64,000 bases of DNA. It comes from Candidatus Latescibacterota bacterium. GTDB taxonomy: Bacteria > Latescibacterota > UBA2968. The stretch covers positions 2,272,001 through 2,336,000 of the forward strand of contig OZ242320.1 of the NCBI GenBank assembly GCA_965208125.1, read 5' to 3'. Every line of letters begins with the position of its first letter. Position 1 is the stretch's first letter. Shown here in pieces: positions 1 through 64,000 of the stretch. The position numbers and the translations under genes are program-made. The notes under the pieces were generated by a model, which made no database searches, was not told the DNA's origin, and saw only the letters and a list, made by a program, of their open reading frames with translations.

Positions 1-4
1 CGAA

Positions 5-42584: not shown

Positions 42585-45500
42585 TTACCAGTATATCTGC
42601 CCTTGTAATATAATACGAGAGTCAGAAGGCCCAACAGCCTGTTTGCGATGCTCGGCTTCGATGTTCAGGTGTACCGTCCGATCCAGTTCCAGACGGCTGC
42701 CCAGCCGGTAGTGCATTGTGCTGGCACCGGATGTGCGCAACCCACCATAAGAGGCGAGCACCCCGTTTTTGCCGTGTGTGGGCAGGTCATAGCCGATTTC
42801 GATGTCAAATTGCTGCGGGCGCACATCGCCTACAGGGCGTTGGCTGCTATGGGCTGTGTCGAGCAGGTGGGTGGGATCCCACAGGGCATTTGTGCGGCTG
42901 ACGGGGTTGCCCCATACGGGCGATATGGCCAGGCGCAGACCGCGATCTCTGATCCCCGGATCGAATCGCAGACTTATTCTGGCACTCCAATCTTTGAAGT
43001 CGGCCTGCTGGTGCGCTATGAGATAGTGCCCGCGTGCTTCTATACCCCACCCGCTGGGGGTATGCACATATCCCAGGCCACCGCCTATTTCTGCACCTAT
43101 TCCCGTTTCTGCTTTGCCCCCATCCCACCGGCCACCAAGCTCAAGGCGCGGGGTCAGCGATGAGGTCTCCGACTGGTGGTTGGACTCACCTTGTAGCGCG
43201 AACCGAACCCGTTGCACGTCTGCTTGGGCGACTGGCAGGTTTTCCCGTTCATCCGAGTTTATGCTGACGACAAAGGCGTCGCTTTTCAGAGACAGATCGA
43301 TACCGCCCGCTTTTGCGAGCGCGTTGCGCATGCCCACCGCCGCCATGATCATTGCGATATCGGTCTGCGCTTCGCTGTATTGATCCGTTATTTGCACATT
43401 GCCCCGGCCGGTGCCTCCCAGGCCCCATATATCCAGGCCCGTGCCTGCTGAATAGTGCATGTAGGGTATGACGCTGAGGAGGTTCAGGTCCATTACACCT
43501 GCATCACTGCCGGTGTAATCGATCTCTCCGGTGCTGTGAGACAGGGCCAGGCCGAGCGTCAAGGGGTTGAAACGATAGTCAATTCCGAGGTATCCAGAAA
43601 AGACGCGTCCGTCCAGTGCAAGGTTATCCTCCGTGCGACTCGAGAACCCGCTCGTGCTGCCGTGTCCCCACAAGGACCAGGGCGATATCTTCTCTGCGTT
43701 TTCTTGCCCCATCCGGAGGCCGAAGCGGCTCTGAGAGAGAATGTCGCGGGCAGAGCGGGAGTGGAACTGAATCGGCTTATAGTCGAATGGGTTGTGCATG
43801 CGGGATGCTGCTCCGAACTGTCCCAACGGCAGGTTGATGTTGAGCCCCATCGATCTCGCCAGGCTTTGCAACAGCCCGATGACGCCGTGGTCTGCACGCA
43901 GAGTCAATGGTTGTCCGCCCAGTGTCGCATAAGATGCCTCTAACCTGGGCGTTGTGAAGCGGTCTTCTATTGCATTTACTGCGTTAGAAGCCACGGTTCG
44001 TCCAAAGGTGCCCAGGGCCAATGTCAGTACGTGTGGATTCAGGTCTGGCACGACCACCGAAAGTGTGAAGGTCATGCTGGCGGACATTGACGGTATGCCG
44101 TTATCTGTCGCTGTCACCGCAATGCTATGCACCCCCACGTCGTTGCGAGCGGGCGTGCCGCTAAATGCGCGATTGGCCGCATCGAAGCGCAGCCATGTCG
44201 GCAGGGGCGCGCCGCCTTCCAGTGCCGCCGTATAGGTCACGGTCTGGCTGGGATCCGGGTCGTTCACTTCGGGGAACGCATATTGGAAGGCCGTGCCCAC
44301 TGTCGCAGTCTGGTTCTCCAGGAGCGGCGCGGCGGGTGCGCCGTTCTCCTGGCGCGTGACTGTCAAGGTGTAGATCGCGCTCGCCAGAATGACCTCAATT
44401 GTGTTTGCACCGATTGCCAATGCAATGGGTTGGCTCGGCGTGCCACTTTTTATTGGCGTGCCGTTGACGACAATGGTCGCGGCTGTGTCGCTCGCCGTGG
44501 GTGTCACTGTGAGGCTCTCGACGGCGTTTCCGATCATGGCTTCATAAGTCGTTGTTTCGCTGGCAAATGTCGGCGTCAACGTGCCTTTCGAGAGCGTCAG
44601 GTCAGTCAGGGTTATGTCGTCGAGGTTGGTCGTCGTCAGGGTTATGTCGTCGAGGTTGGTCAATAAGATCTCTTTGGGGTCTATATTTTTATACTTGAGA
44701 TCGGCGCTTGCGACTGGTGATATGGTGACGGTGTAAGGCTGATCGCCATCGTTGAGGTCATCGGGCAGGCCTGCCACGGTTATCACCTGCGGCGTGTTCC
44801 AGCTCTCGGTGTTGGGCATAAAGGTGAGAGATTGAGGTGTCCCTATGCCTTCGGTGATATCCGAACTGCTGATCGAGAGGTTCACCGGTTCTGTGGGCTG
44901 GCTGTCCAGCACCACCTTGAAACTGGCGACGTGACCTCTTTCGGTGGTGGCCAACCGCGAATCGGGGCTAATCGCAGTGGCGGTTGTTTTGGTGAGTGAT
45001 ACGATTCCCGATTGGTTTACGATCAATCCCAAAATTGGGGTCACCGTGATACCCGCTACATCATCGTCGCGGTTGGTTACCAGCACTTCGGGAAGGTTTA
45101 TCCCATTGTAATCGGGCTGATCACTCGTTGCCGCCAGCACAATTTTATAGTCTTGATCGCCATCGTCGATGTTGTCGTCCACACCGGTGATGGTGACGGT
45201 CTGCGGAATATTCCAGTTTGTGGCTGTGAAGGTGAGGGATTGGGGTGCCACTGTGCCTTCGGTGATATCCGAACTGCTGATCGAGAGGTTCACCGCTGCT
45301 GTGGGCCAGATATTTAGCACCACTGTGAAAGTGGCTGTGCCCCCCGTTTCGGTGGTTGTGAGTCCCAATTCTCCGGCTGTGAGTCCCGATGCTCCCGTGG
45401 GTCCTGTGATGGTCACGGAGGGAGGCGTCAGGTTTGCCTCCACTGAGACTTGCTCTTCTGCTGCATTGTTGCCATTGCCTGCACCATCAGTGGCGATGTT

Positions 45501-48500
45501 TTCGTCGATATTTACGGTCACGGTTCCAGTGGCTGTTGGCGTGATCGTGACTGTGTAGGTTGTGCCTGAGCCGGAGAATGCAGTGACGGTTCCATTGCCG
45601 ACTGTTATATCATCCTGCCCGAACCCTGTGACGTCCTCCGAGAAGGTGATGGTTATGTCAAATGGATCCTTCTGAACATCCGTGGGCCTCGTGATGGTGA
45701 CGGTTGGTGCATTGAAGTCTGCCGTCACTGAGACTTGGCTGGTTGCTGCACTGTTGCCATTGCCCGCGCTATCAGTGGCGACGTCTGCTGCCACATCTAC
45801 GGTCACGGTTCCAGTGGCTGTTGGCGTGATCGTGGCTGTGTAGGTTGTGCCTGAGCCGGAGAATGCAGTGACAGTTCCATTGCCGACTGTTATATCACCC
45901 TGCTCGAATCCTGTGACGGATTCTGAGAAGGTGATGGTTATGTCAAACGCACTGTTCTGGGCATCCGTGGGTCCTGTGATGCTGATCGTTGGCGCGTCCA
46001 TGTCTGCTGTCACTGAGAACTGGCTGGCAGCACTGTTGCCATTGCCTGCGCTATCAGTGGCGACGTCTGCTGCCACATCTACGGTCACGGTTCCGGTAGC
46101 CGCTGGTGTGATGGTAGCGGTGTAGGTGTTGCCTGAACCGGAGAATGTAGTAACAGTTCCATTGCCGACTGTTATATCACCCTGCTCGAATCCTGTGACG
46201 GATTCTGAGAAGGTGATGGTTATGTCAAACGCACTGTTCTGGGCATCCATGGGGCCTGTGATGGTCACGGTGGGACGAGTCAGGTTTGCCTCTACCGAGA
46301 CTTGCCCTGCTGCTGCCGTGTTGCCATTGCCCGCGCTATCAGTGGCGATGTTTTCGGCAATATCTATGGTCACGGTTCCAGTAGCTGCTGGGGTGATGGT
46401 AGCGGTGTAGGTGTTGCCTGAACCGGAGAATGTAGTAACAGTTCCATTGCCGACTGTTATATCATCCTGCCCGAATTCTGTGACGTCCTCCGAGAAGGTG
46501 ATGGTTATGTCAAATGGACCGTTCTGCGTATCCGTCGGTCCGGTGATGGTCACGGTGGGAGGCGTCAGGTTTGCCTCTACTGAGACTTGCCCTGCTGCTG
46601 CCGTGTTGCCATTGCCCGCGCTATCAGTGGCGACGTCTGCTGGCACATCTATGGTCACAGTTCCATTGTCTGCTGGCTCAATGGTGGCTGTGTAGCTTGC
46701 TCCCGAACCAGAGAATGCTGTGATGGAGCCATTGCCGACTGTTATATCACCCTGCTCGAATCCTGTGACAGATTCTGAGAAGGTGATGGTTATGTCAAAT
46801 GCACTGTTCTGAGGATCCGTCGGTCCGGTGATGCTGACGGTGGGAGCATCTATGTCTGTGGTCACAGAGAATTGGCTCGCCGCCGTGTTGCCATTGCCTG
46901 CGCTATCAGTGGCGACGTCTGCTGAGACATCTACGGTCACGGTTCCACTGGCCGCTGGGGTGATGGTGGCGGTGTAGCTGCTGCCCGAACCAGAGAATGC
47001 TGTGATGGAGCCGTTGCCGATTGTTACATCACTCTGCTCGAACCCGGTGACAGATTCTGAGAAGGTGATGGTTACGTCAAACGCACTGTTCTGCGTGTCC
47101 GTCGGTCCGGTGATGACCACCGTTGGACGAGTCAGGTTTGCCTTTACCGAGAATTGGCTGGCTGCTGCCGTGTTGCCATTGCCTGCGCTATCAGTGGCGA
47201 CGTCTGCTGCCACATCTACGGTTATGGTTCCACTGGCTGTCGGCGTGATGGTGGCTGTGTAAGTTGCACCCGAACCAGAGAAGGCTGTCACAGAGCTATT
47301 GCCGACTGTTATATCACTCTGCTCGAATCCTGTGACGGCTTCTGAGAAGGTGATGGTTACGTCAAATGTACTGTTCTGATCATCCGTCGGTCCTGTGATG
47401 GTCACTGTTGGCCGCTCCAGGTCTGCCGTCACGGAGAATTGGCCGGCTGCCGTGTTGCTGTTAGTCGCTGCATCCTCCGCCACGTTTGCCGCCACATCTA
47501 CGGTTATGGTTCCACTGGCTGTCGGCGTGATGGTAGCTGTGTAGGTTGCTCCCGATCCAGAGAAGGCTGTCGCGGTTCCATTGCCGACTGTTATATCACT
47601 CTGCTCGAATCCTGTGACGGATTCCGAGAAGGTGATGGTTACGTCAAATGTACTGTTCTGATCATCCGTCGGTCCTGTGATGGTCACTGTTGGCCGCTCC
47701 AGGTCTGCCGTTACTGAGAATTGGCTGGCTGCCGTGTTGCCGTTAGTCGCTGCATCCTCCGCCACGTTTGCCGCCACATCTACGGTTACTGTTCCATTGG
47801 CCGCTGGGGTGATGGTGACTGTATAGGCTGCTTGTGTACCAGAGAAGGCTGTGACGGCTCCATTGCCGACTGTTATATCACCCTGCTCGAACCCTGTGAC
47901 GGGTGCCGAGAAGGTGATGGTTATGTCAAACGCACTGTTCTGATCATCCGTCGGTCCGGTGATGGTCACGGTTGGCCGCTCCAGGTCTGCCGTTACTGCG
48001 AATTGGCTGGCTGCTGCACTGTTGCCATTGCCTGCGGCATCGTTGGCGACGTTTGCTGGCACATCTACGGTTACTGTTCCATTGGCCGCTGGCGTGATGG
48101 TGACTGTGTAGCTGGCTCCCGAACCGGAGAAGGCTGTCGCGGTTCCATTGCCGACTGTTACCTCACTCTGCTCGAACCCTGTGACAGATTCTGAGAAGGT
48201 GATGGTTATATCAAATGCACTGTTCTGAGGATCCGTCGGTCCGGTGATGGTCACGGTTGGCGCATCGAGGTCTGCTGTCACTGCGAATTGGCTGGCTGCC
48301 TCGTTGCCATTGCCTGCGGCATCGTTGGCGACGTTTGCTGGCACATCTACGGTTACTGTTCCATTGGCCGCTGGCGTGATGGTGACTGTGTAGCTGGCTT
48401 CAGAACCTGAGAAGGCTGTGACGGCTCCATTGCCGACTGTTACCTCACTCTGCTCGAATCCTGTGACGGATTCTGAGAAGGTGATGGTTACGTCAAACGC

Positions 48501-51500
48501 ACTGTTCTGAGCATCCGTCGGTCCGGTGATGACCACCGTTGGACGAGTCAGGTTTGCCTCTACCGAGAATTGGCTGGCTGCTGCCGTGTTGCCATTGCCT
48601 GCACCATCAGTGGCGACGTTCTCAGCGATATCTACTGTTACTGTTCCACTGGCCGCTGGCGTGATGGTGACTGTGTAGCTGTCTTCAGAACCTGAGAAGG
48701 CTGTGACGGCTCCATTGCCGACTGTTACCTCACTCTGCTCGAACCCTGTGACAGATTCTGAGAAGGTGATGGTTACGTCAAATGCACTGTTCTGATCATC
48801 CGTTGGTCCTGTGATGGTCACTGTCGGTGCATCGAGGTCTGCCGTTACTGAGAATTGGCTGGCTGCACTGTTGCCGTTGCCTGCGCTATCAGTGGCGACG
48901 TCTGCTGGGACATCTACGGTCACGGTTCCGCTGGCCACTGGCGCGATGGTAGCTGTGTAGGTTGCTCCTGCACCAGAGAAGGCTGTCACAGTTCCATTGC
49001 CCACCGTCACCTCACTCTGCTCGAATCCTGTGACGGATTCCGAGAAGGTGATGGTTATATCAAATGCACTGTTCTGATCATCCGTCGGTCCTGTGATGGT
49101 CACCGTTGGACGAATCAGGTTTGCCTCTACCGAGAATTGGCTGGCTGCTGCCGTGTTGCCATTGCCTGCACCATCAGTGGCGACGTTTTCCGGCACATCC
49201 ACTGTCACGGTTCCATTGGCTGCTGGCGTGATGGAGACTGTGTAGGTTGCTTCTGTACCAGAGAAGGCTGTGACGGCTCCATTGCCTACTGTGATATCGT
49301 TCTGCTCGAATCCTGTGACAGATTCTGAGAAGGTGATGGTTAGGTCAAATGGACCCTTCTGTGTATCCGTCGGTCCTGTGATGGTCACTGTTGGCCGCTC
49401 CAGGTCTGCCTGCACGGAAAACTGGCTCGCCGCCGTGTTGCCATTGGTGGCGACGTCTGCTGGCACATCTACTGTTACTGTTCCACTGGCCGTCGGTGTG
49501 ATGGTAGCTGTGTAGCTGTCTTCTGAACCAGAGAAGGCTGTCGCGGTTCCATTGCCTACTGTGATGTCGTTCTGCTCGAATCCTGTAACGGCTTCTGAGA
49601 AGGTGATGGTTACGTCAAACGCACTGTTCTGATCATCCGTCGGTCCGGTGATGCTGACCGTCGGTTTATCTACGTCTGGGCTCGGGCTCGTGATGCTGGC
49701 TGTGAATTGGCTGAACGCTGCACCGTTGCCGTTGCCTGCGGCATCAGTGGCGACGTTTGCTGGCACATTTACGGTCACGGTTCCATTGCCCGCTGGGGTA
49801 ATGGTGGCTGTGTAGCTGTCTTCTGAACCAGAGAAGGCTGTGACGGCTCCATTGCCGACTGTTACGTCACTCTGTTCGAATCCTGTGACGGCTTCTGTGA
49901 AGGTGATGGTTATGTCAAACGCACTGTTCTGCGTGTCTGTCGGTCCGGTGATGCTGACTAACGGAGCATCCAGGTCTGCTGTCACGGAGAATTGGCTGGC
50001 TGCCTCGTTGCCGTTGTTCCCCACATCCTTGGCCGCGTTTTCTGGCACATCTACGGTCACGGTTCCGCTGGCCGCTGGCGCGATGGTGGCTGTGTAGGTT
50101 GCTTCTGTACCTGAGAAGGCTGTCACGAAGCCGTTGCCGACTGTTACCTCACTCTGCTCGAACCCTGTGACGTCTTCTGAGAAGGTGATGGTTACGTCAA
50201 ATGTACTGTTCTGAGGATCCGTCGGTCCGGTGATGCTGACCGTCGGTTTATCTACGTCTAATGTTCTCGTACTCTTGAGTTTGACTGCGAATTGGCTGGC
50301 TGCGCTGTTGCTGTTGCCTGCGGCATCAGTGGCGATATCTGCTGGCACATCCACGGTTACGGTTCCACTGCCCTCTGGGGTAATGGTGGCTGTGTAGGTT
50401 GCATCCGAACCTGAGAAGGCTGTGATGGACCCTTTGCCCACCGCAATGTCGTTCTGCTCAAATCCTGTGACGTCCTCCGAGAAGGTGATGGTTACGTCAA
50501 ATGTACTGTTCTGAGGATCCGTCGGTCCGGTGATGCTGACCGTTGGCGCATCGAGGTCTGCGTTCACTGCGAATTGGCTGGCTGCGCTGTTGCTGTTGCC
50601 TGCGACATCGTTGGCGACGTCTGCTGACACATCTACGGTCACGGTTCCGGTAGCCGCTGGTGTGATGGTGGCTGTGTAGCTGTCTTCAGAACCTGAGAAG
50701 GCAGTGACGAAGCCGTTGCCGACTGTTATATCACTCTGCTCGAATCCTGTGACGGATTCTGAGAAGGTGATGGTTACGTCAAACGCACTGTTCTGAGGAT
50801 CCGTCGGTCCGGTGATGCTGACCGTTGGCGCATCGAAGTCTGCCGTTACTGCAAATTGGCTGGCTGCGCTGTTGCCGTTGTCTGCGGCATCGTTGGCGAC
50901 GTTTGCTGGCACATCTACGGTTACTGTTCCATTGGCCGCTGGTGTGATGGTGGCTGTGTAGCTGTCTTCAGAACCTGAGAAGGCAGTGACGGAGCCGTTG
51001 CCGACTGTTACATCACTCTGCTCAAATCCTGTAACGGATTCTGAGAAGGTGATGGTTACGTCAAACACACTGTTCTGATCATCCGTCGGTCCGGTGATGG
51101 TCACTGTTGGCGCATCGAGGTCTGCGTTCACTGAGAATTGGCTGGCTGCCTCGTTGCCCTTTTCTACGACATCAGTGGCGACGTTTTCTGGCACATCTAC
51201 GGTCACGGTTCCGGTAGCCGCTGGTGTGATGGTGGCTGTGTAGGTTGCATTCGAACCTGAGAAGGCTGTGATGGAGCCGTTTCCGACTGTTACATCACTC
51301 TGCTCAAATCCTGTGACGTCCTCTGAAAAGGTGATGGTTACGTCAAATGGTTCTTTCTGTGTATCCGTCGGTCCGGTGATGCTGACCGTTGGCGCATCGA
51401 GGTCTGCCAGCACCGTAAACGTCCTGGATGCCCTGTTGTCATGGCCTGCTTCATCCTTGAACGTCGCTGCGCCGACCTGTACGGTCACGTTGCCGCTTGC

Positions 51501-54500
51501 GGTCGGTGTAATCTGCACGGTGTAGTTCCACCCGTAATCGGTATCGGCCTCGAAAGACGTGACCGTGCCGTTTGTCACCGTGATATCTTCCGCGTCGAAC
51601 CCGACGAGATTACCTTCGGTCGCTGCAAGCCTGACATCGAAGGGTCCGGTTTGAGGTGCCGTCGGTCCGGTGATCCCGGAACTGTACCAGAAGCGCGGCG
51701 GGTCTGCGTCCACCCACACCCGATAGTCTCCCCTCAGAGTGGCAGGGCCGTTCTTGACTCCGAACCATGTCGCTCTCAGGACACATTCGTATGGCCACGA
51801 CCCTTTTCTTTCATCGTTCCTGTAGCTCGGCGTCAATGTCAGGTCAAAGGCTGGCCCTTCCCCGGTGTAGGATATCGTGCTATTCTTCTGCGACGGCTCA
51901 AAACTGTATGCCTCAGGCACTTCCGAGAAGATGACTTTTACCTGGAAAGGGTCCTCGGTCGTGCGCACCGTGGTCGGGCCTTCGAACCGGATTGACCGCG
52001 GCAGATACACTTGCACCGAGAATTGACTGGCTGCCTCGTTGTTATGGCCTACACCATCAGTGGCGGCGTTTGCTGGTACATCCACCGTCACGATTCCACT
52101 TGCCGCCGGGGTGATGGTGGCCGTGTAGCTTGTTCCGGAACCGGAGAATGCAGTGACGGTTCCATTGCCGATTGTTACATCACTCTGCTCGAATCCTGTG
52201 ACGTCCTCCGAGAAGGTGATGGTTACGTCAAAGGCACTGTCCTGATTATCCGTGGGTCCGGTGATGCTAACCGTCGGTGCATCTATGTCTGCGGTCACTG
52301 AGAATTGGCTCGCCGCGGTGTTGCCGTTAGTCGCCACATCCTCCGCCACGTTGGCCGCCACATCTACGGTTACGGTGCCGGTGGCTGTTGGGGTGATGGT
52401 GGCTGTGTAGCTGCTGTCCGAACCGGAGAATGCAGTGACGGTTCCATTGCCAACTGTTACATCCCCCTGCTCGAATCCTGTGACGTCCTCCGAGAAGGTG
52501 ATGGTTACGTCAAATGGTTCCTTCTGCGTGTCCGTCGGCCCCGCGATGCTGACTGTCGGCGCATCGAGGTCTGCCAGCACTGAAAACTGCGGGGATGCCC
52601 TGTTGTCATGGCCTGTGCCGTCCTTGAACGTCGCCGCGCCGACCTTCACCCTCACGTATCCGCTCGCGGCCGGTGTAATCTGCACGGTGTAGCTATCCCC
52701 GTAATCGGAATTGGCCTTGAAAGACGTGACCGAGCCGTTCTCGACCGTGATATCTTCCGCGTCGAAGCCGACGAGATTACCTTCGGTCACTCCAAGACTG
52801 ACATTGAAGGGGCCGTTCTGCGGCACCGTCGGTCCGGAGACCCCTCGGCTCCAGAATCGAGGCGGATCCGGATCCACATCTACCTGATAGGTTGCAACCA
52901 AAGAAGGATGGCCCTCCCTGGGGTCGGACCAATGCAGCCGTATCCTGCACCAGTACGGCCACGACCCGCTTCGTTTTTCCGTGTAACCCGGCGTCACCGT
53001 GAAGGTAACGACTGACTGGCCGGAGTACCAGGTGGTGGAAGCAGTGAGATGCCATCTGTCACTGTATAAGGACCCAGACACAGGCGGTTCCGAGAAGATG
53101 GCTCGTACCTGGAACGAATCCCCGGTCTTGCGTATCGTGGTCGGCCCTTCGAACCGAATCCACCGCGGCAGATACACTTCCACGGAGAATTGGCTCGCCG
53201 CCGTGTTGTTGTTGCCTGCGGCATCCTCCGCCACGTTGGCCGCCACATCTACCGTCGCGGTTCTACTGACTGTCGGCGTGATGGTGGCTGTGTAGCTGCT
53301 GCCCGAACCTGAGAAGGCAGTGACGGAGCCATTGCCGACTGTCACGTCCTCCTTCTCGAACCCTGTGACGTCCTCCGAGAAGGTGATCGTCACGTCAAAT
53401 GCCCCTTCCTGATCATCGGTCGGTCCGGTGATGCTGACTGTCGGCGCATCTATGTCTGCTGCCACTGAGAACTGGCTGGCCGCCTCGTTGCCATTGCCCG
53501 CCGCATCCCTGGCCGCGTTCTCCGCCACATCTACGGTCACGGTTCCAGTGGCCGCTGGCGTGATGGTGGCTGTGTAGCTGGCTCCCGAACCGGAGAAGGC
53601 TGTCACCGACCCGTTGCCGACCGTCACATCCGACTGCTCAAAACTGTTCACATTCGGATCTATCGCCTCCGAAAACTCGATACTCACGCTAAACGCACCG
53701 GTCTGAACGGCCGTCGGTCCGGTGATGGTTACTGTCGGCGCATCCTGGTCTGCCGTCACGGAGAATTGGCTGGCTGCCTCGTTGCCGTTGCCTGAGGCAT
53801 CGGTGGCGACGTTTGCCGCCACATCTACGGTCACGGTTCCACTGGCCGCTGGCGAGATTTCGACTTCATAGCTGGTCCCCGAACCCGAAAAGGATTTCAC
53901 CGACCCGTTGCCGACCGTCACATCCGACTGCTCGAACCCGGTGACGTCCTCCGAGAAGGTGATCGTCACCTTGAACGAATGCTTCCCTATCGTATATGTC
54001 GGTCCGGTGATGGTCACTGTGGGATCCTCCAGGTCCGCCTCGGTCACCGTGATCGTGAAGGTCGCTGTCGAGGGGCTCTCCAGCGAGGTGCCCTCCTCAT
54101 TTGCCTCGATCGTGACCGTGTAATCCTTTTCTGTCGCGTTCGCGGCCACCGTGCCCTGCACCTGGCCGTTCGTGTACGACAGCCCGGAAGGCAGGCCCGA
54201 AACCGTCACGGTCACCGGGTCTTCGTTCGGATCGGTCACCGTGATGTCGAACGCGGTGATCGTCTCTCCCTGCTCATACGTCTTGTTCTCCGGTGCCTTG
54301 ATCACTGGCGGCTGGTTCGACGCCTTCACCCTGATCGTGAAGGTCTTCGTCACTGTGTTCACCCTGTCAGTTACGCTGATCGTGACCGTGTAGTCCTTTG
54401 CCGTTGCATCTGACGCCACTGTGCCCTGCACCTGGCCGTTCGTGTACGACAGTCCCGATGGAAGACCCGTCATCGTCACCGTAATGTTGACGTCGTAGTC

Positions 54501-55583: not shown

Positions 55584-55631
55584 TTGTTGATTCCTTTCAC
55601 AAAGGTTTGTAGTTGTTTGCGCTTATCCTTG

Positions 55632-55647
55632 TGCAAAAACCGTGCCA
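55632..55647 (-). promoter_or_regulatory. Sigma54 (-24/-12) promoter of the autotransporter
   Basis: Reverse complement TGGCACGGTTTTTGCA, 48 nt upstream of the ATG. Confidence 0.88.
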
Positions 55648-55822
55648 GTGTTCTCAGAAATTTCTTAACCCATTCCGATACAATTACTTAGAGGCACATG
55701 TCCCCAATAGCTAAATCGTCTGCAAATTCGGCAAAATGCAATGGTCGCATGTCGATCTGAGGCCGATTAGAGGAGTCTATATTGTTTTATTTCAAGGGGT
55801 TATGTTGCGATAGGAGGGTGCG

Positions 55823-55858
55823 AGTCGCATTTTGCAATACGAGTCGCATTTTGTAGCG
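55823..55858. promoter_or_regulatory. Candidate enhancer (UAS) pair for the sigma54 activator
   Basis: AGTCGCATTTTGCAATA and AGTCGCATTTTGTAGCG, 19-bp period; IHF-like TTTCAAGGGGTTA at 55790-55802. Confidence 0.7.
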
Positions 55859-55907
55859 ATGTGTAGGAAGTGTGATCCGTAGATGACGCAGATGAACACA
55901 GATAATT

Positions 55908-55968
55908 GTAGGGGCGACCCTTGTGGTCGCCCGTCTTGAACAAGGGCGACCACAAGGGTCGCCCCTAC
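55908..55968. repeat. REP doublet; the right GTAG supplies the activator stop codon
   Basis: GTAGGGGCGACCCTTGTGGTCGCCC-spacer-GGGCGACCACAAGGGTCGCCCCTAC. Confidence 0.9.
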
Positions 55969-57845
55969 TTCAAATTCAGGTCGTATCTCTTCAATTTCCG
56001 GTACAGGGTCGCTCTGTTGATTCCCAGGGCTTGAGCTGCTCTGGTAACGTTGTGATCTGAGGCTTCAAGCGCGTGGGTTATGGCCTCATGCTCGACTTTC
56101 TCAAGGGGCAGGATCGCTGTTGGCTGGTCGCTTTGCGCCGATAGGAGCGGCGATAATTCGGACGGGAAGTTGCTGGCTTGTAACACTTCGGTCGTCTCCA
56201 GCAGAACGGCCCGCTCAATGGCGTTTTCAAGTTCTCGTACGTTGCCAGGCCAATCGTACTGGAGCAGTACGCGCAGTGCCGCGTTGGAAAGGCCGCTGAT
56301 GGATTTGTCCATGCGTGTGGCGCACTTTCCGATAAAATGGTTGGCCAACAGGGGAATATCTTCTCGGCGTTCTCTCAGGGGCGGGATTGAGATGGGGAAA
56401 GCCGATAGGCGATAGAACAGGTCTTCGCGGAAGGTTCCCGCCTGTATCGCATTCTCCAGGTTCTGGTTGGTTGCCGCAATTATCCGCACGTTTACCGGGA
56501 GCGTAGCCGATCCACCGATCCGCGATATTTTGCGTTCTTGCAGCACGCGCAATAGCTTGGCTTGCAGAACAGGTTGCATATCGCCGATTTCGTCGAGAAA
56601 AATTGTTCCGCCCTCGGCGCGCTCAAAAGCTCCGATTCTCTGATCCGTCGCTCCGGTGAAAGCCCCCTTTTCGTGGCCGAACAACTCGCTTTCAATCAGT
56701 GGTTCGGGAAGGGCGGCGCAATTGATAGCCACAAATGGCTCCTTCTTACGCGGACTATTGAAGTGGAAGAGTCTGGCGACCAGTTCCTTACCGGTTCCGC
56801 TTTCGCCGCGAATGAGTACCGTAATATCGCTTTCGGTTGCCTGCTTGATCAGCGCGTACATCTGCTGCATTTTGGGGCTGTCGCCCACGATGCCGTCGAA
56901 CGAATAGGTCGTTTCCAACTCGGAGCGCAGGCGCAGCACTTCGGTTTTCATTTGCTCGACTTCGATTTCTCTGGACACGTCTCGATACACCATCAGGCGA
57001 CCGATAACGGTTTCACAATCATCGCGCACCGGGGCGGTGGATTGGTAGAATAGCCGTTGCTTTGGCAACTGACCCGCACGGGTTTCTTTTTTCGCGTTGT
57101 CTTCAAGGAGGAACTTGCCCTCCAGTTCCGGCAGACCGGGTTCTTGAAACCGCTCTTTGAATCGCGTCATGAGCGCGTCCGGCGAAATTTTCTTGAGTTC
57201 GTTTTCCTTCAGATTGAACAATTTTTCGTAGCCTTGATTCGCAAATACCAGATGCCCGGTGGCATTGTACATGGCCATGGCGTCTCCTGTGGCATTTAGC
57301 ACGGCTTCCAGTCTTTGATGACTAACAGCGAGTTGCTGCTGTTTCTCGGCCAATGCCTGTTCGACGTTCCACTTGCCGACGAGGGAAAGCGCGATCTGCT
57401 GAATCTCCTCGTGTGCAAAAGGCTTTCTGATATAGAGGACTTTGTGCAGCAATTCCATTTCGTGGATGATCTCAGACAGAGGCTTGTCCGTGTACGCGGT
57501 CATGATGACGATCTCGATGTCGCGATCTATTTTTCTGATTCGACGGATCGTTTCAATACCATCGATACCCGGAGGCATTCTGATGTCGATATACGCAATG
57601 GCAAGGGGATGGTTCGATTCCTTTGCCTTATGTACGATTTCGCAGGCTTCCTCTCCGCTCGTTGCGTGCAAAAGTTCAAACTCTGGCAAAAAGGGCTTGT
57701 CTTTTTCGCGGATGAAGGCGGTCGCCAAATCATCTGTTGATCGCGCCAATAGGTTGGGCTTCAACATTTCTTCAAAGTCGTTGTGGATATCTTCCTGATC
57801 ATCAACGACCAGAACGCGATTGTTGTCATAATTATTGAGTTTCAT
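55965..57845 (-). CDS. Sigma54-dependent activator: REC-PAS-AAA+-Fis HTH
   Basis: VVDD...[10 protein letters not shown]...TAY...KP; [51 protein letters not shown]; SD favours ATG at 57845. Confidence 0.94.
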
Positions 57846-57903
57846 AAGCGGTCCTTTCGTCTGTGTCATGTCGAGAGCAGCGATCGCTTACTCTGGTTGT
57901 AGT

Positions 57904-59610
57904 TCAAATGTTCTGGGGCGTAATGGAGGAAAGCCGCAGCAGAATGCGCAGGGTTGTACCTTTGCCGATGCCGTCGCTCAAGGCGTGAATCTGTCCACCC
58001 GATCCAATGACAAAATTGGCGGCTGAATGGAGACCGAGGCCACTCCCCGATTCTTTTGTGGTATAACCTGCGGAAAAGATCTTCTTGAAATTTTCCCGTT
58101 CAATGCCGATGCCGTTATCACGCACATCGAGGTAGAAAAAATTCCCCTCAACGTAGGCTCGGATCTGAATGCGAGGCGTTTCCTCTATTCCGCCCGATGC
58201 TGCAAGGTCGTCAATGGCTTCAATAGAATTTTTAATCAGATTGACCATCATCTGATAAAATTGGCTCTCCTGAATCCGAATCTCTTGTGGTGCGTTTTCG
58301 CAGTCAATCACTGTCTCGATCTCTCTTTTGTCGAGCAGCTCTTGCAAGACCTTGGTGGCAGACGAGACAGCATCCTTCAAGTGGATGTTTTTTTGATCTA
58401 TACTCGGACTGCCGAATACTTTTTGGGTGCGGACAATATCAGCGATGTGATCCGCCCGGTCTTTCACGCGGGCAACCGTCTTTACCAATCTTTCATTTAG
58501 CCCGGTAAAGTCTTCGGCGAGGGCGATAATAAAAGGTATCACTTTTTGGCCTTGCGGGTCGTCGCGGATGTAATCAGCCCAATTATCTCGATGCGCTTTT
58601 ATGGCATCGGCAAGGGCGCAAAGGCGGTGTAAGAACGGATCGTTGATCAGATTCTGGTGAACGGTCTCAATGCCCACTGTTACGCTGTTGATGGCATTGC
58701 CGATGTTGTGGAGAATGGTATCGACGATCTCCAATCGCCCTTGTGCAAATGCCTGCGCCAACGCTTCATCGGCGTTCATTTGCTCGGTGACATCGCGGAA
58801 AGTGATTACGCCGCCTCTGATTTCACCTATCTCGTTGAGGAGTGGTCGCCCACTCACCCGGATATAGACGCCATCTGGTCGCTGGGGATTGCGTATGAAT
58901 ATGTCCTCATCTTCTGTTACTTCACCCTGGTATATGGCGCGCAGGAGCGGCAGATCCTCTGTTTTAATGGGCGTTTTCCGATCGAGATAAAAAGAGCCGT
59001 ATTTTTCACTCCACTGATCTTGTGGTGTGTCGGTCTCGCCCAGGCCGACAATTTTTTCAGCCCCGGGATTTACATATAGAAACTCTCCCGCTTCATTGGA
59101 CACGACTATGCCCTCACTGATGCTGTTAAAAGTGGTCTCTAACAGTTCGTTCTGATTTCGCAGTTCTTCCAGCGTTTGTCTCAACCTGACTTCTGTAGTT
59201 TTGTACTCGGTTTCTCTGTGCTTCTTTTCCCGCTCGTGCATGGAAAGTGCGGTCTGGATGTTCAGATGAAGTTGTCGTTCTTCATAGGGTTTTAGCACAT
59301 AGCCAAATGGCCGGGTCGTCTGTGCCCGTTGCAACAGGTCTTCTTCTACCTCATCCATCAGATAGATCACGGGCATGCGACTGCCAATTTGTTCGGCTAC
59401 GTCAATGCCCGTGATCTCGCCTTTGAGTTCGAGGTCAATCAGGGCCAGGTCGGGACGCATGGTAGCGGCTTTTTCAATGGCTTGTTGCCCGGATGAGAGG
59501 GTGGCGCACACGGTATAGCCCAGGTTTTTCAGGCGTTCTTCGAGGTGGGTGGCAGCAGAATGATCGCTTTGCACAATCAGGATCTTTAAAGGAGATTGCT
59601 GTTCTGTCAT
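57904..59610 (-). CDS. Histidine kinase: degenerate REC-PAS-HisKA-HATPase
   Basis: H-box ILHNIGNAIN, NLIKNS, DNGIGI, GYTTKESGSGLGL. Confidence 0.9.
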   Translation of the reverse strand: MTEQQSPLKILIVQSDHSAATHLEERLKNLGYTVCATLSSGQQAIEKAATMRPDLALIDLELKGEITGIDVAEQIGSRMPVIYLMDEVEEDLLQRAQTTRPFGYVLKPYEERQLHLNIQTALSMHEREKKHRETEYKTTEVRLRQTLEELRNQNELLETTFNSISEGIVVSNEAGEFLYVNPGAEKIVGLGETDTPQDQWSEKYGSFYLDRKTPIKTEDLPLLRAIYQGEVTEDEDIFIRNPQRPDGVYIRVSGRPLLNEIGEIRGGVITFRDVTEQMNADEALAQAFAQGRLEIVDTILHNIGNAINSVTVGIETVHQNLINDPFLHRLCALADAIKAHRDNWADYIRDDPQGQKVIPFIIALAEDFTGLNERLVKTVARVKDRADHIADIVRTQKVFGSPSIDQKNIHLKDAVSSATKVLQELLDKREIETVIDCENAPQEIRIQESQFYQMMVNLIKNSIEAIDDLAASGGIEETPRIQIRAYVEGNFFYLDVRDNGIGIERENFKKIFSAGYTTKESGSGLGLHSAANFVIGSGGQIHALSDGIGKGTTLRILLRLSSITPQNI

Positions 59611-62600
59611 CGCGTTTCATCCTTTTCGCTGATATTATTGGAATCGAAGGAGCGGTCATCCGTACTATTGCGGATTTTGTTACGTGGGATATGGAAGGGA
59701 TAGTTCAGTTTGACCCGAAGGAGTGTCCCCTTGCCAATGCCGTCGCTCAATGCGCGAATCTGTCCGCCAGAACTAAGGACAAAATTGGCTACCGAGTAGA
59801 GACCGAGGCCACTCCCCGATTCTTTTGTGGTATAACCAGAGGCAAATATCCGCCTGATATACTCTTCGCCAAGGTCGATGCCGATGCCGTTATCTTCTAC
59901 TTCGATGGTGAGATCATTCCCCCTGACATAGGTGCGGATATGAATGCGAGGCGGTGCATTGAGACCGCCTGCTGCTGCGAGATCATCGATGGCTTCTATC
60001 GAATTTTTGATCAGGTTGATCATCATCTGATGAAATTTGCTCTCTTGAATCCGAATTTCTTGTGGCGCGGTGTCTTCGCAGTCAATAACTGTCTCGATCC
60101 CTCTTTTATTGAGCGACTCTTGCAAGACCTTGATAGCCATCGCGAACGCGTGCCGAAGGTCGATGTCTTTCAGGTTCATATTGGGTCCGTCTAATGTCTC
60201 CTGGGTGCGGATAATATCGGCGATGTGATCCGCCCGGTCTTTAACGCGATCAACCGTTTTGGTCAGTGCGACATCCTGCCGGCTAAAGTCTTCGGCGAGT
60301 GCGATAACAAACGGCAACACCTGTTGGCCTTGCGGGTCATTTTGGATGTAGTTGTCCCAATCGTCTCTGTGTGCTTTTATCGCCTCGGCAAGGGCGCAGA
60401 GGCGGTGTATGAGTGGGTTTTCCACTAAATGCTGGTGAACGGTCTCAATGCCCACTGTTACGCTGTTGATGGCATTGCCAATGTTGTGGAGGATGGTATC
60501 GAGGATCTCCAGGCGGCCCTGTGCGAATGCCTGCGCCAATGCTTCTTCGTTGACCCACTGTTCGGTGATATCGCGGAAAGTAATTACAGCCCCTCTAACT
60601 ATGTCGTCCTCGTTGTAGAGCGGTCGTCCGTTTACGCGGATATGAACGCCATCCGACTTTTTTTTATTGCGGATGAATATATCCTCATCGTCAATGGACT
60701 CTTTGCGGAACAGGATGCGGAGGAGCGGCTGTTTTCTGAGGTTCATGAGCGTTTTTTGATCGGGATAAAAAATGCCGTGTGTTCTCGGCAATTCAGATAG
60801 CGGTAGAGTTACCCTTTTTATGCCGGTAATTTGTGTGAAACTGGGATTGATGTACAGGGAGCGTTTGGGTAGATCGGCAATGATGATTCCATCGCTGATA
60901 TTATCAAAAGCGGTCTCCATCAGTTCGTTCTGGTTTCGCAATTCACGCGCTGTTTGTTCCAACTCCATCTCTGTTATTTTGCGCTCGGTAATGTCGTGAA
61001 AGACGACCACGCCTCCTCCGTGCTCATCTATATCTTTTTCCAGGGGGCGACCACTGACGCTGATATAAACCCCGTCGGGCTTTTTCTCATTGCGTATAAA
61101 TAACTCCATATCGTCCGTGTTGTGACCTTGTATGGCGCGCACTAGAGGAATCTGGTCGGTTGGTAAGTGCGTTTTCTGGTCGGGTAAAAAGATGCCATAT
61201 TGGTCCGTCCACTGTTCTGGAGGTGTCTCCAGCATACCGATACCCACAATTTGTTCGGCACTCGGATTAAAAATGGTGAATTGCCCCTCTGCATCGGCCA
61301 CGATCACACCGTCGCTGATACTGTTAAAAACGGTTTCCAAAAGTTGGGCCTGACGTTGCTGCTCGCGGTTGGCTTGTTCCAATTTGGCGTCTACCTCTTT
61401 TTTCTGCGTGAGGTCGCGAACAACGACCAATCCGGCTATGATCGTACTTTCGTCATTGCTGAATATGGGGCGGCCACGGGCCGAAATGTACGTCCCTTCC
61501 GGATTTTTTTGATTGCGTACAAACATTTCCATTTCATCTGTTTCCTCGCCATAGAACGCGCGTGTGAGGGGAAGTTGCTCAACGGGGATGGGCGTTTTTA
61601 TATCGGGGTAGTAAACACCAAAAGTTTTAGACCATTCACTCATGTCTGGATTGATGGACCACGAACCGAAAATTCTTTCCACAGTTCTATTGGCGAATAA
61701 TATTTGGCCTATTGGATTGGCGACGATGATGCCGTCATTCATATTGTCACAGATGGCTTCCAGGAACTGGATTTGTTCGCGCAATTCCTCAATGATTTGT
61801 TTCTGTTTCTCTGCTGTCTCTTTGTTCCCGTTGTTGTCAGCGTCAGAGACGGATTCGATGAATGGGACATGATCGTGTGGTTCGCCATCGATTTGTGCCA
61901 ATCTATTTTTCATCTTTTCGTGTTCGGTGAAGTCGCGCAGAATGGTCAGGCCGGCTTTGACCATCGTGCCGTCACTGCTCGGCACGGGTATCCCGCGGAT
62001 GCGGACGTAATTCCCATCCGCATTTTGCTCATTGCGAACAAATAACGTCATTTCTTCTGTTTTCTCACCCTTTACAGCACGCACGAGCGGAAGGTAATCG
62101 GTTGGCACATGCGTTTTTCCATCGGCATAAAAAATGCCATACGTTTCAGACACTTCATTGATGGGTATATGCTGGACCTCTGCATCCATTTCTGTACCCA
62201 AAATTCGTCTCGCACTTTTATTCAAGAACAATGTGCGATTTGTTGCATCGGAGAGGACGACGCCGTTATTTATATTTTCCAGGACAGTTTCCATGAGCTG
62301 GGTCTGATCGCGCAATTCGCTGACTGCCTGTTCCAATTTGGCGTCTGTCTCTTTGTTTTTGCTGATGTCGCGGAAAACGATCACTCCGCCTTTCACCCCG
62401 CTGTTATCGGGTGGTAAAGGTCTGCCGCTGACGTTGATATAAGCACCTTCTGGCAAGTTCGGGTTGCATACAAATATCTCGACGTCGTCTGAGGATTCAC
62501 CGTGGATGGCACGTGTGAGTGGGAGATCAGCACTGGGAAACAACGTGACGCGATCTGGAAAAAAGAGGCCGTATTCTTCAGACCGGCGATTCAGGTCTGT

Positions 62601-63212
62601 GCCTGGGATATAGGATCCGATGATTCGTTTTGCGCTGGAATTAAAAGTCAAGTAGTCTCCGTTTTCAGTGACGGCGATCACGCCGTCACTGAGACTCTCC
62701 AGAATGGTTTCCAGGCGTTGCGCCTGATGTTGTAGTTCATCGATTTTTTGTTCCATCTCGCATTCGGTCTGTTTGTGCTTTCTTTCTCGTTTGTGCATGG
62801 AAAGAGCAGTCTGGATGTTTAGATGAAGTTGCTGTTCTTCATAAGGTTTTAGCACATAGCCAAATGGATGGGTGGCGCGTTGCAACAGGTCGCCCTCGGA
62901 ACCATCTGTGAGAAAGATTACGGGTATATCGGCGCTGAGTTGTTCGGCAACGCCATCGGCATCTCCCGACAGTCCGAGATCGATCAGGGCCAGGTCGGGA
63001 TGCATTTCAGCGGCTTTTTCAATGGCCTCCTGTGCCGAGGAAACCGCGGCGCACACGGTATAGCCCAGGCTTTTCAGGTGCTCTTCGAGGTGGATGGCGG
63101 AATGCGCTTTCATACGAGTATGTGAATGAAAGGCGGTTCCTGTCAGATGTTTTTCGAGGTGTTTAGCAGAAGCATGCTCGTCCTGGACAATCAGGATCTT
63201 TGCATCTGTCAT
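59607..63212 (-). CDS. Histidine kinase: REC-5xPAS-HisKA-HATPase (paralog of the downstream kinase)
   Basis: Five PAS units with YGxFxPD...LPLxRA motif; ILHNIGNAIN, DNGIGI, GSGLGL; AAGGA SD; ATGA coupling. Confidence 0.92.
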   Translation of the reverse strand: MTDAKILIVQDEHASAKHLEKHLTGTAFHSHTRMKAHSAIHLEEHLKSLGYTVCAAVSSAQEAIEKAAEMHPDLALIDLGLSGDADGVAEQLSADIPVIFLTDGSEGDLLQRATHPFGYVLKPYEEQQLHLNIQTALSMHKRERKHKQTECEMEQKIDELQHQAQRLETILESLSDGVIAVTENGDYLTFNSSAKRIIGSYIPGTDLNRRSEEYGLFFPDRVTLFPSADLPLTRAIHGESSDDVEIFVCNPNLPEGAYINVSGRPLPPDNSGVKGGVIVFRDISKNKETDAKLEQAVSELRDQTQLMETVLENINNGVVLSDATNRTLFLNKSARRILGTEMDAEVQHIPINEVSETYGIFYADGKTHVPTDYLPLVRAVKGEKTEEMTLFVRNEQNADGNYVRIRGIPVPSSDGTMVKAGLTILRDFTEHEKMKNRLAQIDGEPHDHVPFIESVSDADNNGNKETAEKQKQIIEELREQIQFLEAICDNMNDGIIVANPIGQILFANRTVERIFGSWSINPDMSEWSKTFGVYYPDIKTPIPVEQLPLTRAFYGEETDEMEMFVRNQKNPEGTYISARGRPIFSNDESTIIAGLVVVRDLTQKKEVDAKLEQANREQQRQAQLLETVFNSISDGVIVADAEGQFTIFNPSAEQIVGIGMLETPPEQWTDQYGIFLPDQKTHLPTDQIPLVRAIQGHNTDDMELFIRNEKKPDGVYISVSGRPLEKDIDEHGGGVVVFHDITERKITEMELEQTARELRNQNELMETAFDNISDGIIIADLPKRSLYINPSFTQITGIKRVTLPLSELPRTHGIFYPDQKTLMNLRKQPLLRILFRKESIDDEDIFIRNKKKSDGVHIRVNGRPLYNEDDIVRGAVITFRDITEQWVNEEALAQAFAQGRLEILDTILHNIGNAINSVTVGIETVHQHLVENPLIHRLCALAEAIKAHRDDWDNYIQNDPQGQQVLPFVIALAEDFSRQDVALTKTVDRVKDRADHIADIIRTQETLDGPNMNLKDIDLRHAFAMAIKVLQESLNKRGIETVIDCEDTAPQEIRIQESKFHQMMINLIKNSIEAIDDLAAAGGLNAPPRIHIRTYVRGNDLTIEVEDNGIGIDLGEEYIRRIFASGYTTKESGSGLGLYSVANFVLSSGGQIRALSDGIGKGTLLRVKLNYPFHIPRNKIRNSTDDRSFDSNNISEKDETR

Positions 63213-63351
63213 GGTATTGACATCCTTTTTTTAGGGAAGGGGAGTATGCAGGAGCGCCGATATGCTGCCTGTTTTTTGCTCAGTATATGCAGGCTCGGCA
63301 TCGGCACTTTGATATATATGCAAATGTGTGCAAAAATCGTATGCAAATGTG

Positions 63352-63367
63352 TGCAAAAATCGTGCCA
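63352..63367 (-). promoter_or_regulatory. Sigma54 (-24/-12) promoter of the kinase/activator operon
   Basis: Reverse complement TGGCACGATTTTTGCA. Confidence 0.88.
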
Positions 63368-63558
63368 GTTTGTAATAAATGATATAATTATTTGTAAATT
63401 AACGAGTTATAGCATGAAAAATGATTCGCAAATTTTTGGACTGTTGCAGAATGCGACCTTGTAAACCGCAGGGAATGCATATTCAGTGAATTAAATATAC
63501 AACAAACGTTTGTTTATAGATAATTTATGGGAAAATTGGAGGTAGGATATAGAGGGTT

Positions 63559-63594
63559 TGTCGCAAATTGAAACAAATGTCGCAATTTGCGACA
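63559..63594. promoter_or_regulatory. Candidate enhancer (UAS) pair
   Basis: TGTCGCAAATTGAAACA and the perfect palindrome TGTCGCA-ATT-TGCGACA, 19-bp period; extra site TGTTGCAGAATGCGACC at 63442-63458. Confidence 0.75.
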
Positions 63595-63613
63595 GATATG
63601 ATGACCGAAGTGA

Positions 63614-63726
63614 CCCCGTATAAGCAATGACTCTATACAGCAAGCATTACGGGGCAGGCTCCCAAGCGGTTGTCATTGCGGCAAGGGGTTAGCCGCCACG
63701 CCGAAGGCACAACGCCAGTAATCCAG
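63614..63726. repeat. Degenerate palindromic repeats (CCCCGT...ACGGGGCAGGCT and an interrupted CGTC-type element)
   Basis: GTCATTGCGGC-AAGGGGTTA-GCCGC[insert]AATCCAG compared with the copy at 10900-10932. Confidence 0.55.
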
Positions 63727-63774
63727 AAGGTGTTGCCTTTGGGTGGATGGGGGACTGAAAGCTGACCGCTTGTT

Positions 63775-63999
63775 TTACAAAAAATACGCGTCCTGTTCTT
63801 TGCGTATTGTCCAGAGGGGGTCGTTGTCTTTGGGTTGTATCGCGCTTGCTGTGATGAAGGTGCCAGCGGGGATGTCCCGGCTGAGGATATTGCCGTTAGC
63901 CATGTGAAAGGGGAGGGGGTTGTTGGGCGCGACAGGTAGCGCGGGGCGCATGAGGTATTCGATGTTTTTGCTGTGGTCGTTGCCGATCTGGTCGCCGGC
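63775..63999 (-). CDS. 3' end of a probable NAD(P)-dependent oxidoreductase with C-terminal SAF domain (partial)
   Basis: Manual translation ...PLPFHMANGNILSRDIPAGTFITASAI...PLWTIRKEQDAYFL*; not in the ORF track. Confidence 0.6.
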   Translation of the reverse strand, partial: AGDQIGNDHSKNIEYLMRPALPVAPNNPLPFHMANGNILSRDIPAGTFITASAIQPKDNDPLWTIRKEQDAYFL

Positions 64000-64000
64000 T

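Follow-up and report, generated by a model that had tools for sequence, protein, structure and literature searches.

A putative NtrC-type sigma-54 circuit linked to a giant surface protein gene and to its own regulatory operon in a Candidatus Latescibacterota genome

Gene content of the locus

The stretch of DNA analyzed here, hereafter the window, comprises 64,000 bp of a Candidatus Latescibacterota genome (assembly GCA_965208125.1, contig OZ242320.1, positions 2,272,001-2,336,000), and it harbors a transcriptional activator, two histidine kinases and a giant surface protein, whose genes appear to be joined by sigma-54-dependent control. The genome is a single contig of 5,747,750 bp with a G+C content of 51%, and its closest named relatives are metagenome-assembled genomes labelled Candidatus Latescibacterota. 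All genes of the module are situated on the minus strand, as listed here by window position:

42585-55583, minus strand: surface protein gene, 4,332 residues (open reading frame with Pfam domains)
55965-57869, minus strand: activator gene, 634 residues, with a receiver domain (REC), a PAS domain, an AAA+ sigma-54 interaction domain and a Fis-type helix-turn-helix (HTH) of the HTH_8 family
57904-59610, minus strand: kinase 2 gene, 568 residues, with REC, PAS and HATPase_c domains
59607-63212, minus strand: kinase 1 gene, 1,201 residues, with REC, several PAS and HATPase_c domains

Because the stop of kinase 1 overlaps the start of kinase 2 by 4 bp, and a gap of 34 bp separates kinase 2 from the start of the activator gene, these three genes look like one operon.

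Predicted promoters and putative activator sites

Both the surface protein gene and the operon are preceded by a sigma-54-type -24/-12 element and, farther upstream, by tandem sites to which the activator would bind. The elements are the following, where L001 and L002 denote the orthologous loci of two close relatives, with activators 93% identical to that of the window:

55632-55647, minus strand: predicted -24/-12 element (TGGCACGGTTTTTGCA) for sigma-54, located 48 nt before the ATG of the surface protein gene and shared with L001 and L002
55726-55742, minus strand: weak promoter-proximal candidate site of the surface protein gene, centred about -100 from the -12 element, with 4 mismatches to TGTNGCANNNTGCNACA as counted by hand; proposed from its position, which is as in other loci
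55823-55858, minus strand: putative tandem distal activator sites of the surface protein gene, 17-mers at 55823-55839 and 55842-55858, 19-bp period, centres at about -197 and -216
63352-63367, minus strand: predicted -24/-12 element (TGGCACGATTTTTGCA) for sigma-54, located 139 nt before the ATG of the kinase-kinase-activator operon and likewise shared with L001 and L002
63442-63458, minus strand: putative promoter-proximal activator site of the operon, centred at -96 from the -12 element, 1 mismatch to the consensus
63559-63594, minus strand: putative pair of distal activator sites of the operon in tandem, one with 1 mismatch (63559-63575, centred at -213) and one a perfect palindrome (63578-63594, centred at -232), with a 19-bp period

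The two promoters differ at one of 16 positions, and both satisfy all specified positions of the pattern TGGCAC-N5-TTGCW, with GG at -24 and GC at -12. When both strands of the genome were scanned, this general pattern matched 40 times and TGGCACGRTTTTTGCA only twice, i.e. at the two window promoters, which confirms the pair of near-identical sigma-54 promoters described in an earlier note made from the letters of the window. The same note had placed pairs of sites with a 19-bp period upstream of both promoters, and these were found as described, ~200-230 bp away in each case and with a common GATA..GAGGGT flank beside them. The strict tandem pattern CAAWWTGCGAC-N8-CAAWWTGCGAC is present exactly twice in the genome, in the two window pairs, compared to 31 occurrences of the single 11-mer. 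As the pattern was built from the window sites themselves, this count shows uniqueness and not significance, for which the orthologous loci described below are the independent test. The palindrome TGTCGCA-N3-TGCGACA, on the other hand, applies in part: it is perfect at 63578-63594, but the other three sites keep the right half TGCGAC with a degenerate left half. The perfect site is the sole exact match to TGTNGCANNNTGCNACA in the genome, where 24 sites are found at no more than one mismatch.

Sites for integration host factor (IHF), which had been claimed to lie between each pair and its promoter, found no support, as the consensus WATCAANNNNTTR had no exact match and three one-mismatch matches in all in the two regions. 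The operon region is 70% A+T and may bend by itself.

Between the operon and the surface protein promoter lies a further feature:

55908-55968, minus strand: long hairpin directly after the activator stop, 61 nt, folding energy -58.8 kcal/mol, z-score -11.9

The hairpin is composed of two inverted copies of GGGCGACC..GGTCGCCC, and it looks like a repeated element of the repetitive extragenic palindrome (REP) type, since 50 copies of its core, GGGCGACC-N3-7-GGTCGCCC, were counted across the genome. Its probable role is to insulate or terminate the regulator operon, and the surface protein gene would therefore depend on its own promoter. In the region 55400-64000, a search against Rfam gave one chance-level match, located on the hairpin (29 bits versus a gathering score of 90), and intrinsic terminators were predicted at 14 places versus 10.9 in shuffled sequences, i.e. 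without excess, one of them being the palindromic putative activator site itself.

Domain composition of the activator and the kinases

By its domains and motifs, the activator is a complete sigma-54 enhancer-binding protein (EBP). Pfam models identified a receiver domain (PF00072, residues 66-159, E 9.3e-11), a PAS domain, the Sigma54_activat domain (PF00158, residues 327-493, E 8.7e-73), AAA_lid_14 and a C-terminal Fis-type HTH (PF02954 HTH_8, residues 589-629, E 3.2e-16), and the motifs GAFTGA and Walker A (GESGTGKE) were found at residues 402 and 355, respectively. The genome also encodes the corresponding sigma factor, RpoN, in an open frame of 497 residues (PF04552, 201.3 bits with a cut-off of 22.8).

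The sensors had been proposed to be cytoplasmic PAS proteins, and this agrees with our data, as PAS domains are present in both kinases and neither has a hydrophobic segment (maximal 19-residue Kyte-Doolittle means of 0.98 and 0.90), from which we take both to be cytoplasmic. The HisKA domain of Pfam was not detected in kinase 2, in which a possible H-box, HNIGNAIN, was spotted by eye. Among the NCBIfam models, the best were AtoC for the activator (415.8 bits, cut-off 714) and AtoS for both kinases (cut-off 646), while the ntrC model scored 385.5 bits on the activator, under its cut-off of 558.6, and the ZraR cut-off of 760 was likewise far from being reached. With scores this far under the cut-offs, the activator and the kinases fit no named equivalog.

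Conservation in orthologous loci

By scanning species-representative genomes (80 loci), we found 16 loci with an activator that could be aligned over its full length at 54-93% identity; counts out of 17 loci given below include the window locus. Apart from L001 and L002, they comprise other Latescibacterota with activators 61-69% identical (L006, L009, L013, L014 and L022), loci labelled Binatia (L010 and L012), Poribacteria (L004, L005 and L007), and Gemmatimonadota or Gemmatimonadetes (L003, L008, L011 and L015). A kinase homologue is situated immediately upstream of the activator in 15 of the 16, the exception being L008. L001 and L002 retain the two promoters as well as the two site pairs, and in their intergenic alignments the well-aligned block starts within ~15-20 bp upstream of the distal sites, the DNA farther upstream being barely alignable.

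The sequence elements and their clustering in the orthologues are far beyond chance. With GG and GC fixed and at most 2 mismatches allowed, 13 sigma-54-like sites, spread over 11 of the 16 loci, were found within 600 nt behind the activator gene, compared to 40 in the other 645,894 strand-nt, where 0.59 would be expected behind the activator (Poisson P 1e-13). The relaxed palindrome TGTNNCANNNTGNNACA, at no more than 1 mismatch, occurred 15 times in the 420 bp behind the activator gene (10 of the 16 loci), compared to 12 times in the other 321,027 bp (expected 0.25, Poisson P 6e-22). Conservation of the motif, on which the earlier note had staked its proposal, was thus observed. Of the 12 palindromes found elsewhere, six belong to the tandem sites upstream in L001, L002 and L008, and one more overlaps the L002 operon promoter. 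Tandem pairs with a period of 18-20 bp number eight in all in 327,747 bp; they are located either just behind the activator (L002, L004, L006, L007 and L012) or, in L001, L002 and L008, before the regulator genes, where a sigma-54 promoter follows ~230 bp downstream of the pair. In L011 and L014, the promoter lies 1.2-1.4 kb behind the activator, with variant-type tandem sites ~200 bp upstream of it. The proximal site recurs at -90 to -101 in seven of 17 scanned promoter regions, and at -134 and -157 in two Poribacteria loci. Another observation was made in L006, where a weak sigma-54-like 16-mer followed by a palindrome-like site ~70 bp on is found twice inside coding sequence (6865/6939 and 14604/14672); this is probably due to repetition of a coding segment, with no role in regulation.

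The half-sites were also compared with the residue that opens the recognition helix, which may correspond to a DNA-contacting Asn of Fis. Activators with INR go together with TGC(G/A)AC, IAR (L007) with TGCTAC in all six half-sites, and LGR and LSR (the sister sequences L011 and L014, respectively) with TGAGAC. L008 (IHR) and L009 (ISR) do not fit neatly. That the half-site sequence tracks the start residue of the helix is therefore suggestive only, with three changes and two loci outside the pattern.

A large repeat-rich protein of surface type is encoded by the first or second gene behind the promoter in nine of the 16 loci. Big_12-type proteins were found in L001, L002, L003, L011 and L014. 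In L004, a single receiver protein comes first and then an open frame exceeding 3,293 residues, with DUF4625 and LTD domains. L005 has a protein of 2,462 residues that combines cadherin, LRR and Big_9 domains with a type IX sorting tail, L006 an 874-residue WD40 protein, and L009 a protein of 1,945 residues with Calx-beta and cadherin-like domains. In L007, a dehydrogenase/thioesterase starts 570 bp behind the promoter, and in L008, L010, L012, L013, L015 and L022 the first sizeable open reading frame had no Pfam match.

The surface protein

Domain identification with Pfam revealed 30 Big_12 immunoglobulin (Ig)-like repeats in the surface protein of the window, together with He_PIG and Cadherin-like domains. 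Its N-terminus resembles a signal peptide, with a basic start, an Ala-rich stretch and then VQA-D, and the sole hydrophobic windows of a hydropathy scan start at residues 10-19. The C-terminal ~380 residues had no match in Pfam (E up to 5), NCBIfam or the PDB sequences (E up to 10). Homologous domains do, however, form the end of two other very long frames of this genome, with 8,822 and 3,171 codons, as well as of frames from five related genomes, and 11 of 15 such domains matched the autotransporter beta-domain PF03797 (best E 3.9e-08). Autotransporter beta-domain clusters likewise made up 29 of 30 hits for the domain in the ESM Atlas. Without an alignment, the predicted fold was useless (pLDDT, the predicted local distance difference test, 28.8); an AlphaFold model based on a 15-row alignment reached a pLDDT of 75.1 and forms an all-beta barrel, in which DSSP assigned 18 strand elements but no long helix, compared to 12 strands and a linker helix in the pore of a classical type Va autotransporter. 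Foldseek matched this model to the autotransporter barrels of EspP, BrkA, Hbp and NalP, at template modelling (TM) scores to the target of 0.45-0.55, as well as to 22-stranded TonB-dependent receptors.

Taken together, these results suggest that the protein is anchored by an outer-membrane barrel related to autotransporter domains and, given the signal peptide, it is probably displayed on the cell. The protein had been called an autotransporter, for which the homologous domains and the modelled barrel give indirect support, but no database match of its own C-terminus does.

In L001 and L002, the orthologues (ends: L083 and L084) have open frames of 3,431 and 3,331 codons compared to 4,345 in the window, so that repeat number differs by roughly 1,000 residues among close relatives. 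The end domains of the 8,822- and 3,171-codon frames are located at genome positions 1711785-1712852 and 1762556-1763545 (L101 and L102) and are 40% and 35% identical, respectively, to that of the window. Another very long reading frame, with more than 2,100 codons and open at the window start, is found at window positions 2-6310, and an aconitase gene (39839-42520) is convergent on the 3' end of the surface protein gene.

A proposed regulatory circuit

From these data we consider it likely that an NtrC-type sigma-54 two-component circuit drives both the surface protein gene and its own operon. The two soluble hybrid kinases (REC-PAS-kinase) would sense a cytoplasmic signal via their PAS domains and phosphorylate the receiver domain of the REC-PAS-AAA+-HTH activator. 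Dimers of the latter would then bind two abutting 17-bp sites (consensus about TGTyGCA-N3-TGCrACA, 19-bp period) ~200-230 bp upstream of the promoter, and a third near -96/-100. The bound activator may assemble into an active AAA+ ring, reach the sigma-54 holoenzyme at the -24/-12 element by looping and open the promoter by ATP hydrolysis. One output would be the adjacent 4,332-residue Ig-like repeat protein, probably on the cell surface; the other would be the kinase-kinase-activator operon, i.e. positive autoregulation. On comparative evidence, the surface protein arm of this regulatory reading appears well supported and the feedback arm reasonably supported. Bistability is only a possibility, one that positive feedback would allow.

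Observations against the circuit and alternative explanations

Several observations weigh against the proposed circuit, and they concern the surface protein arm, the feedback arm and the identity of the activator in turn. As to the first, the sites of the surface protein gene are poorer than those of the operon, with 2 mismatches in one, more than 3 in another and 4 in the proximal site. Furthermore, L003 and L009 have tandem sites accompanied by weak -24/-12 look-alikes only, as seen by eye, and in L008 a perfect site is present behind the activator but no recognizable sigma-54 promoter was found there. The phylum labels of the orthologous loci are also a source of doubt, since they derive from metagenome bins and may include binning errors.

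As to the second, the enhancer-promoter cassette precedes the regulator genes in only four of 17 loci (the window, L001, L002 and L008), and it was not found in the 10 kb upstream of 12 other loci. Feedback is hence not a trait of the whole family, although positive autoregulation plausibly is, on the evidence of site and promoter layout, a feature of this lineage. For the claim that the activator induces both its own operon and the adhesin, this means that the link between activator, sites, promoter and target is kept in the orthologous loci, while the layout for self-activation is restricted to the four. One alternative is accordingly that the activator drives the surface protein but gains little or no feedback from the operon cassette, the operon being mainly constitutive from an unrecognized promoter and not switch-like. 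Such an arrangement would also supply the basal activator which a pure sigma-54 loop needs from another promoter, and the leader of the operon contains an element that may modulate or dampen its output:

63317-63363, minus strand: exact 23-bp tandem duplication (2.0 copies), including the -12 element and reaching into the 5' untranslated region of the operon

The GG of the -24 element is missing from the second copy, and both L001 and L002 align with additional repeat-like copies at the duplication, so the length of the leader varies among close relatives. Against this alternative stands the layout of the operon itself, in which the sites at 63559-63594 and 63442-63458 and the promoter at 63352-63367 all lie upstream of the kinase-kinase-activator genes, with the best sites of the genome (0 and 1 mismatch) and a perfect -24/-12 element. 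The cassette is also kept in L001 and L002, from the sites onward, and L008, a locus lacking the upstream kinase gene, has an independent equivalent, with tandem sites of its own (9674 and 9693) and a sigma-54 promoter (9905) immediately ahead of the activator gene. A scan of 55400-64000 for sigma-70-type promoters gave 7 compared to 8.8 in shuffled sequences, i.e. no excess, though the consensus may not apply to this phylum. We find an operon with little feedback unlikely, and retain autoregulation as part of the circuit.

As to the third, the circuit is not alone in its genome. The search for co-occurrence of palindrome and -24/-12 element that the earlier note had called for recovered both window cassettes and one place more with the full architecture, at genome positions 5,381,710-5,381,963 on the minus strand (locus L081, about 15710-15963). 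This third cassette has tandem sites with TGCAAC half-sites, a proximal site and the promoter TGGCACGGTTTTTGCT, and it is 77% identical to the operon cassette over 254 bp (E 5e-50) at a distance of 3.05 Mb. The alignable part extends from just upstream of the distal sites to the promoter. What follows is a 301-residue LacI-family reading frame without a DNA-binding domain, flanked by intact LacI-family paralogues ~0.5 kb upstream and 2.6 kb downstream. The cassette resembles a promoter block that was copied and took the place of the 5' end in a duplicated gene. Block-copying of this kind is what an explanation of the shared motifs as leftovers of duplicated promoter DNA, devoid of regulatory function, would invoke. 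The surface-protein and operon cassettes, however, are 50% identical overall, with the motifs alone in common, at matching distances, which means that the motifs are not a recent copy. In addition, the motifs recur in loci where the activators are 54-69% identical, at which distance neutral DNA would not have stayed alignable. Altogether, we regard functionless leftovers as very improbable.

The genome also has 26 matches to the AAA+ region of the activator. Among these is a paralogous activator at genome positions 5,588,787-5,590,475, which is 49% identical over residues 79-631 and has a similar HTH, with the recognition helix INRTTLYRKLKKY close to that of the window activator. By sequence, the paralogue could share or compete for the activator sites, and the third cassette might be served by either activator. 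The promoters may then be genuine sigma-54 promoters with sites that are read by, or shared with, another EBP, this paralogue being the candidate. In line with such a view, neither sites nor a good sigma-54 promoter were found within 8 kb upstream or 4 kb downstream of the paralogue, which thus has no target of its own nearby, and the third cassette is unlinked to either activator. The synteny of activator, sites, promoter and target across 16 loci argues for the adjacent activator instead, as do the half-site changes that follow changes in its helix, and in the window both cassettes flank the operon in which that activator is encoded. Control by another EBP is, in our estimate, rather improbable, and the window activator is kept as the regulator of both promoters. 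The circuit had been termed self-contained, which is not entirely accurate, since a 77% identical copy of the operon cassette and a 49% identical activator exist elsewhere in the genome. The paralogue gene is followed by genes which, judged by eye, resemble tRNA genes.

Evolution and habitat

The evolution of the activator was studied in a quick maximum-likelihood tree of 22 activators, in which the four outgroup rows and the paralogue have long branches. The 17 full-length relatives and the paralogue form one 18-member clade with a support of 100% in the Shimodaira-Hasegawa-like approximate likelihood ratio test (SH-aLRT), within which the paralogue groups with L006. Phylum labels are interleaved in this clade: at least five changes on well-supported branches are required for Latescibacterota, and the sister of L014 (labelled Latescibacterota) is L011 (labelled Gemmatimonadota), with 100% support. 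This points to old paralogy or to gene exchange between bacteria whose habitat may be a common one, and binning errors in the metagenome bins could also contribute.

As for habitat, run X11, recorded as a sponge metagenome, contains contigs that are ~90-95% identical over most of the operon, among them one of 4,374 nt covering 59206-62997. Contigs of another run, X1, match the stretch without differences.

We tentatively propose, with somewhat more doubt than confidence, that kinase, REC-PAS-activator, tandem enhancer and sigma-54 promoter together make up a portable cassette, which uncultured lineages associated with sponges, and bearing the labels of at least four phyla, have exchanged. It would have been placed before different giant eukaryote-like repeat proteins, i.e. 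barrel-anchored Big_12, cadherin/LRR with a type IX sorting tail, WD40 and Calx-beta proteins, such that host-contact proteins would be displayed only on an intracellular, PAS-sensed signal. Self-activation and the third, copied output would then have been gained in the lineage of the window.

Relation to known systems and biological meaning

The enhancer mechanism of NtrC-type activators with positive autoregulation is textbook knowledge. In the NtrB/NtrC system of enteric bacteria, a receiver-AAA+-Fis-type HTH activator binds paired sites upstream of glnAp2 and loops to the -24/-12 element, and the promoter also feeds the regulator genes. The window has in common with this system the paired upstream sites, the -24/-12 promoter and the predicted positive autoregulation. 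Unlike NtrC, the window activator has an extra PAS domain between receiver and AAA+ domain, and in place of NtrB there are two soluble kinases, each with an N-terminal receiver domain. The sites are also positioned differently, at -197 to -232 with one near -96, and the circuit would serve a giant surface protein instead of nitrogen assimilation. Activation of its own operon and of a neighboring gene is known also from ZraR. The AtoS/AtoC and ZraS/ZraR systems are, like the present one, sigma-54 two-component pairs, the former with the best-scoring models, but nothing beyond the AAA+/HTH or the kinase core aligns, and domain architecture and targets differ.

In Desulfovibrio vulgaris, EBP genes are located beside operons with conserved sigma-54 promoters and palindromic upstream sites, and one EBP gene was proposed to be autoregulated, according to the main text of Kazakov et al. 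(2015, PMC4641369). The logic of inference there is the same as here, but the phyla and the EBP family are different, and the word "adhesin" is absent from that main text. Sigma-54 as a controller of the bacterial exterior is the thesis in the title of Francke et al. (2011, PMC3162934), a theme shared with our locus, while "adhesin" and "autotransporter" are absent from the main text of that paper. In the literature on sigma-54 or EBP control in sponge symbionts, Latescibacteria and Poribacteria, or of adhesins and autotransporters, we found no description of this module, with subscription journals outside the coverage.

Since the mechanism as such is well established, the finding is of value for the target class and the taxa and offers no new principle. 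Of more interest is that a single regulator family with a single enhancer geometry precedes different giant repeat proteins in uncultured bacteria that carry the labels of four phyla. Such giant, repeat-rich proteins at the surface are a hallmark of uncultured bacteria living with hosts. A sigma-54 promoter is silent without its activator. The pairing of giant surface protein genes with a recognizable regulator, defined DNA sites and a promoter type thus yields a concrete prediction, which could be rebuilt in a laboratory host. The portable cassette, if that proposal is true, would offer the first candidate handle for the regulation of such proteins in symbionts of sponges.

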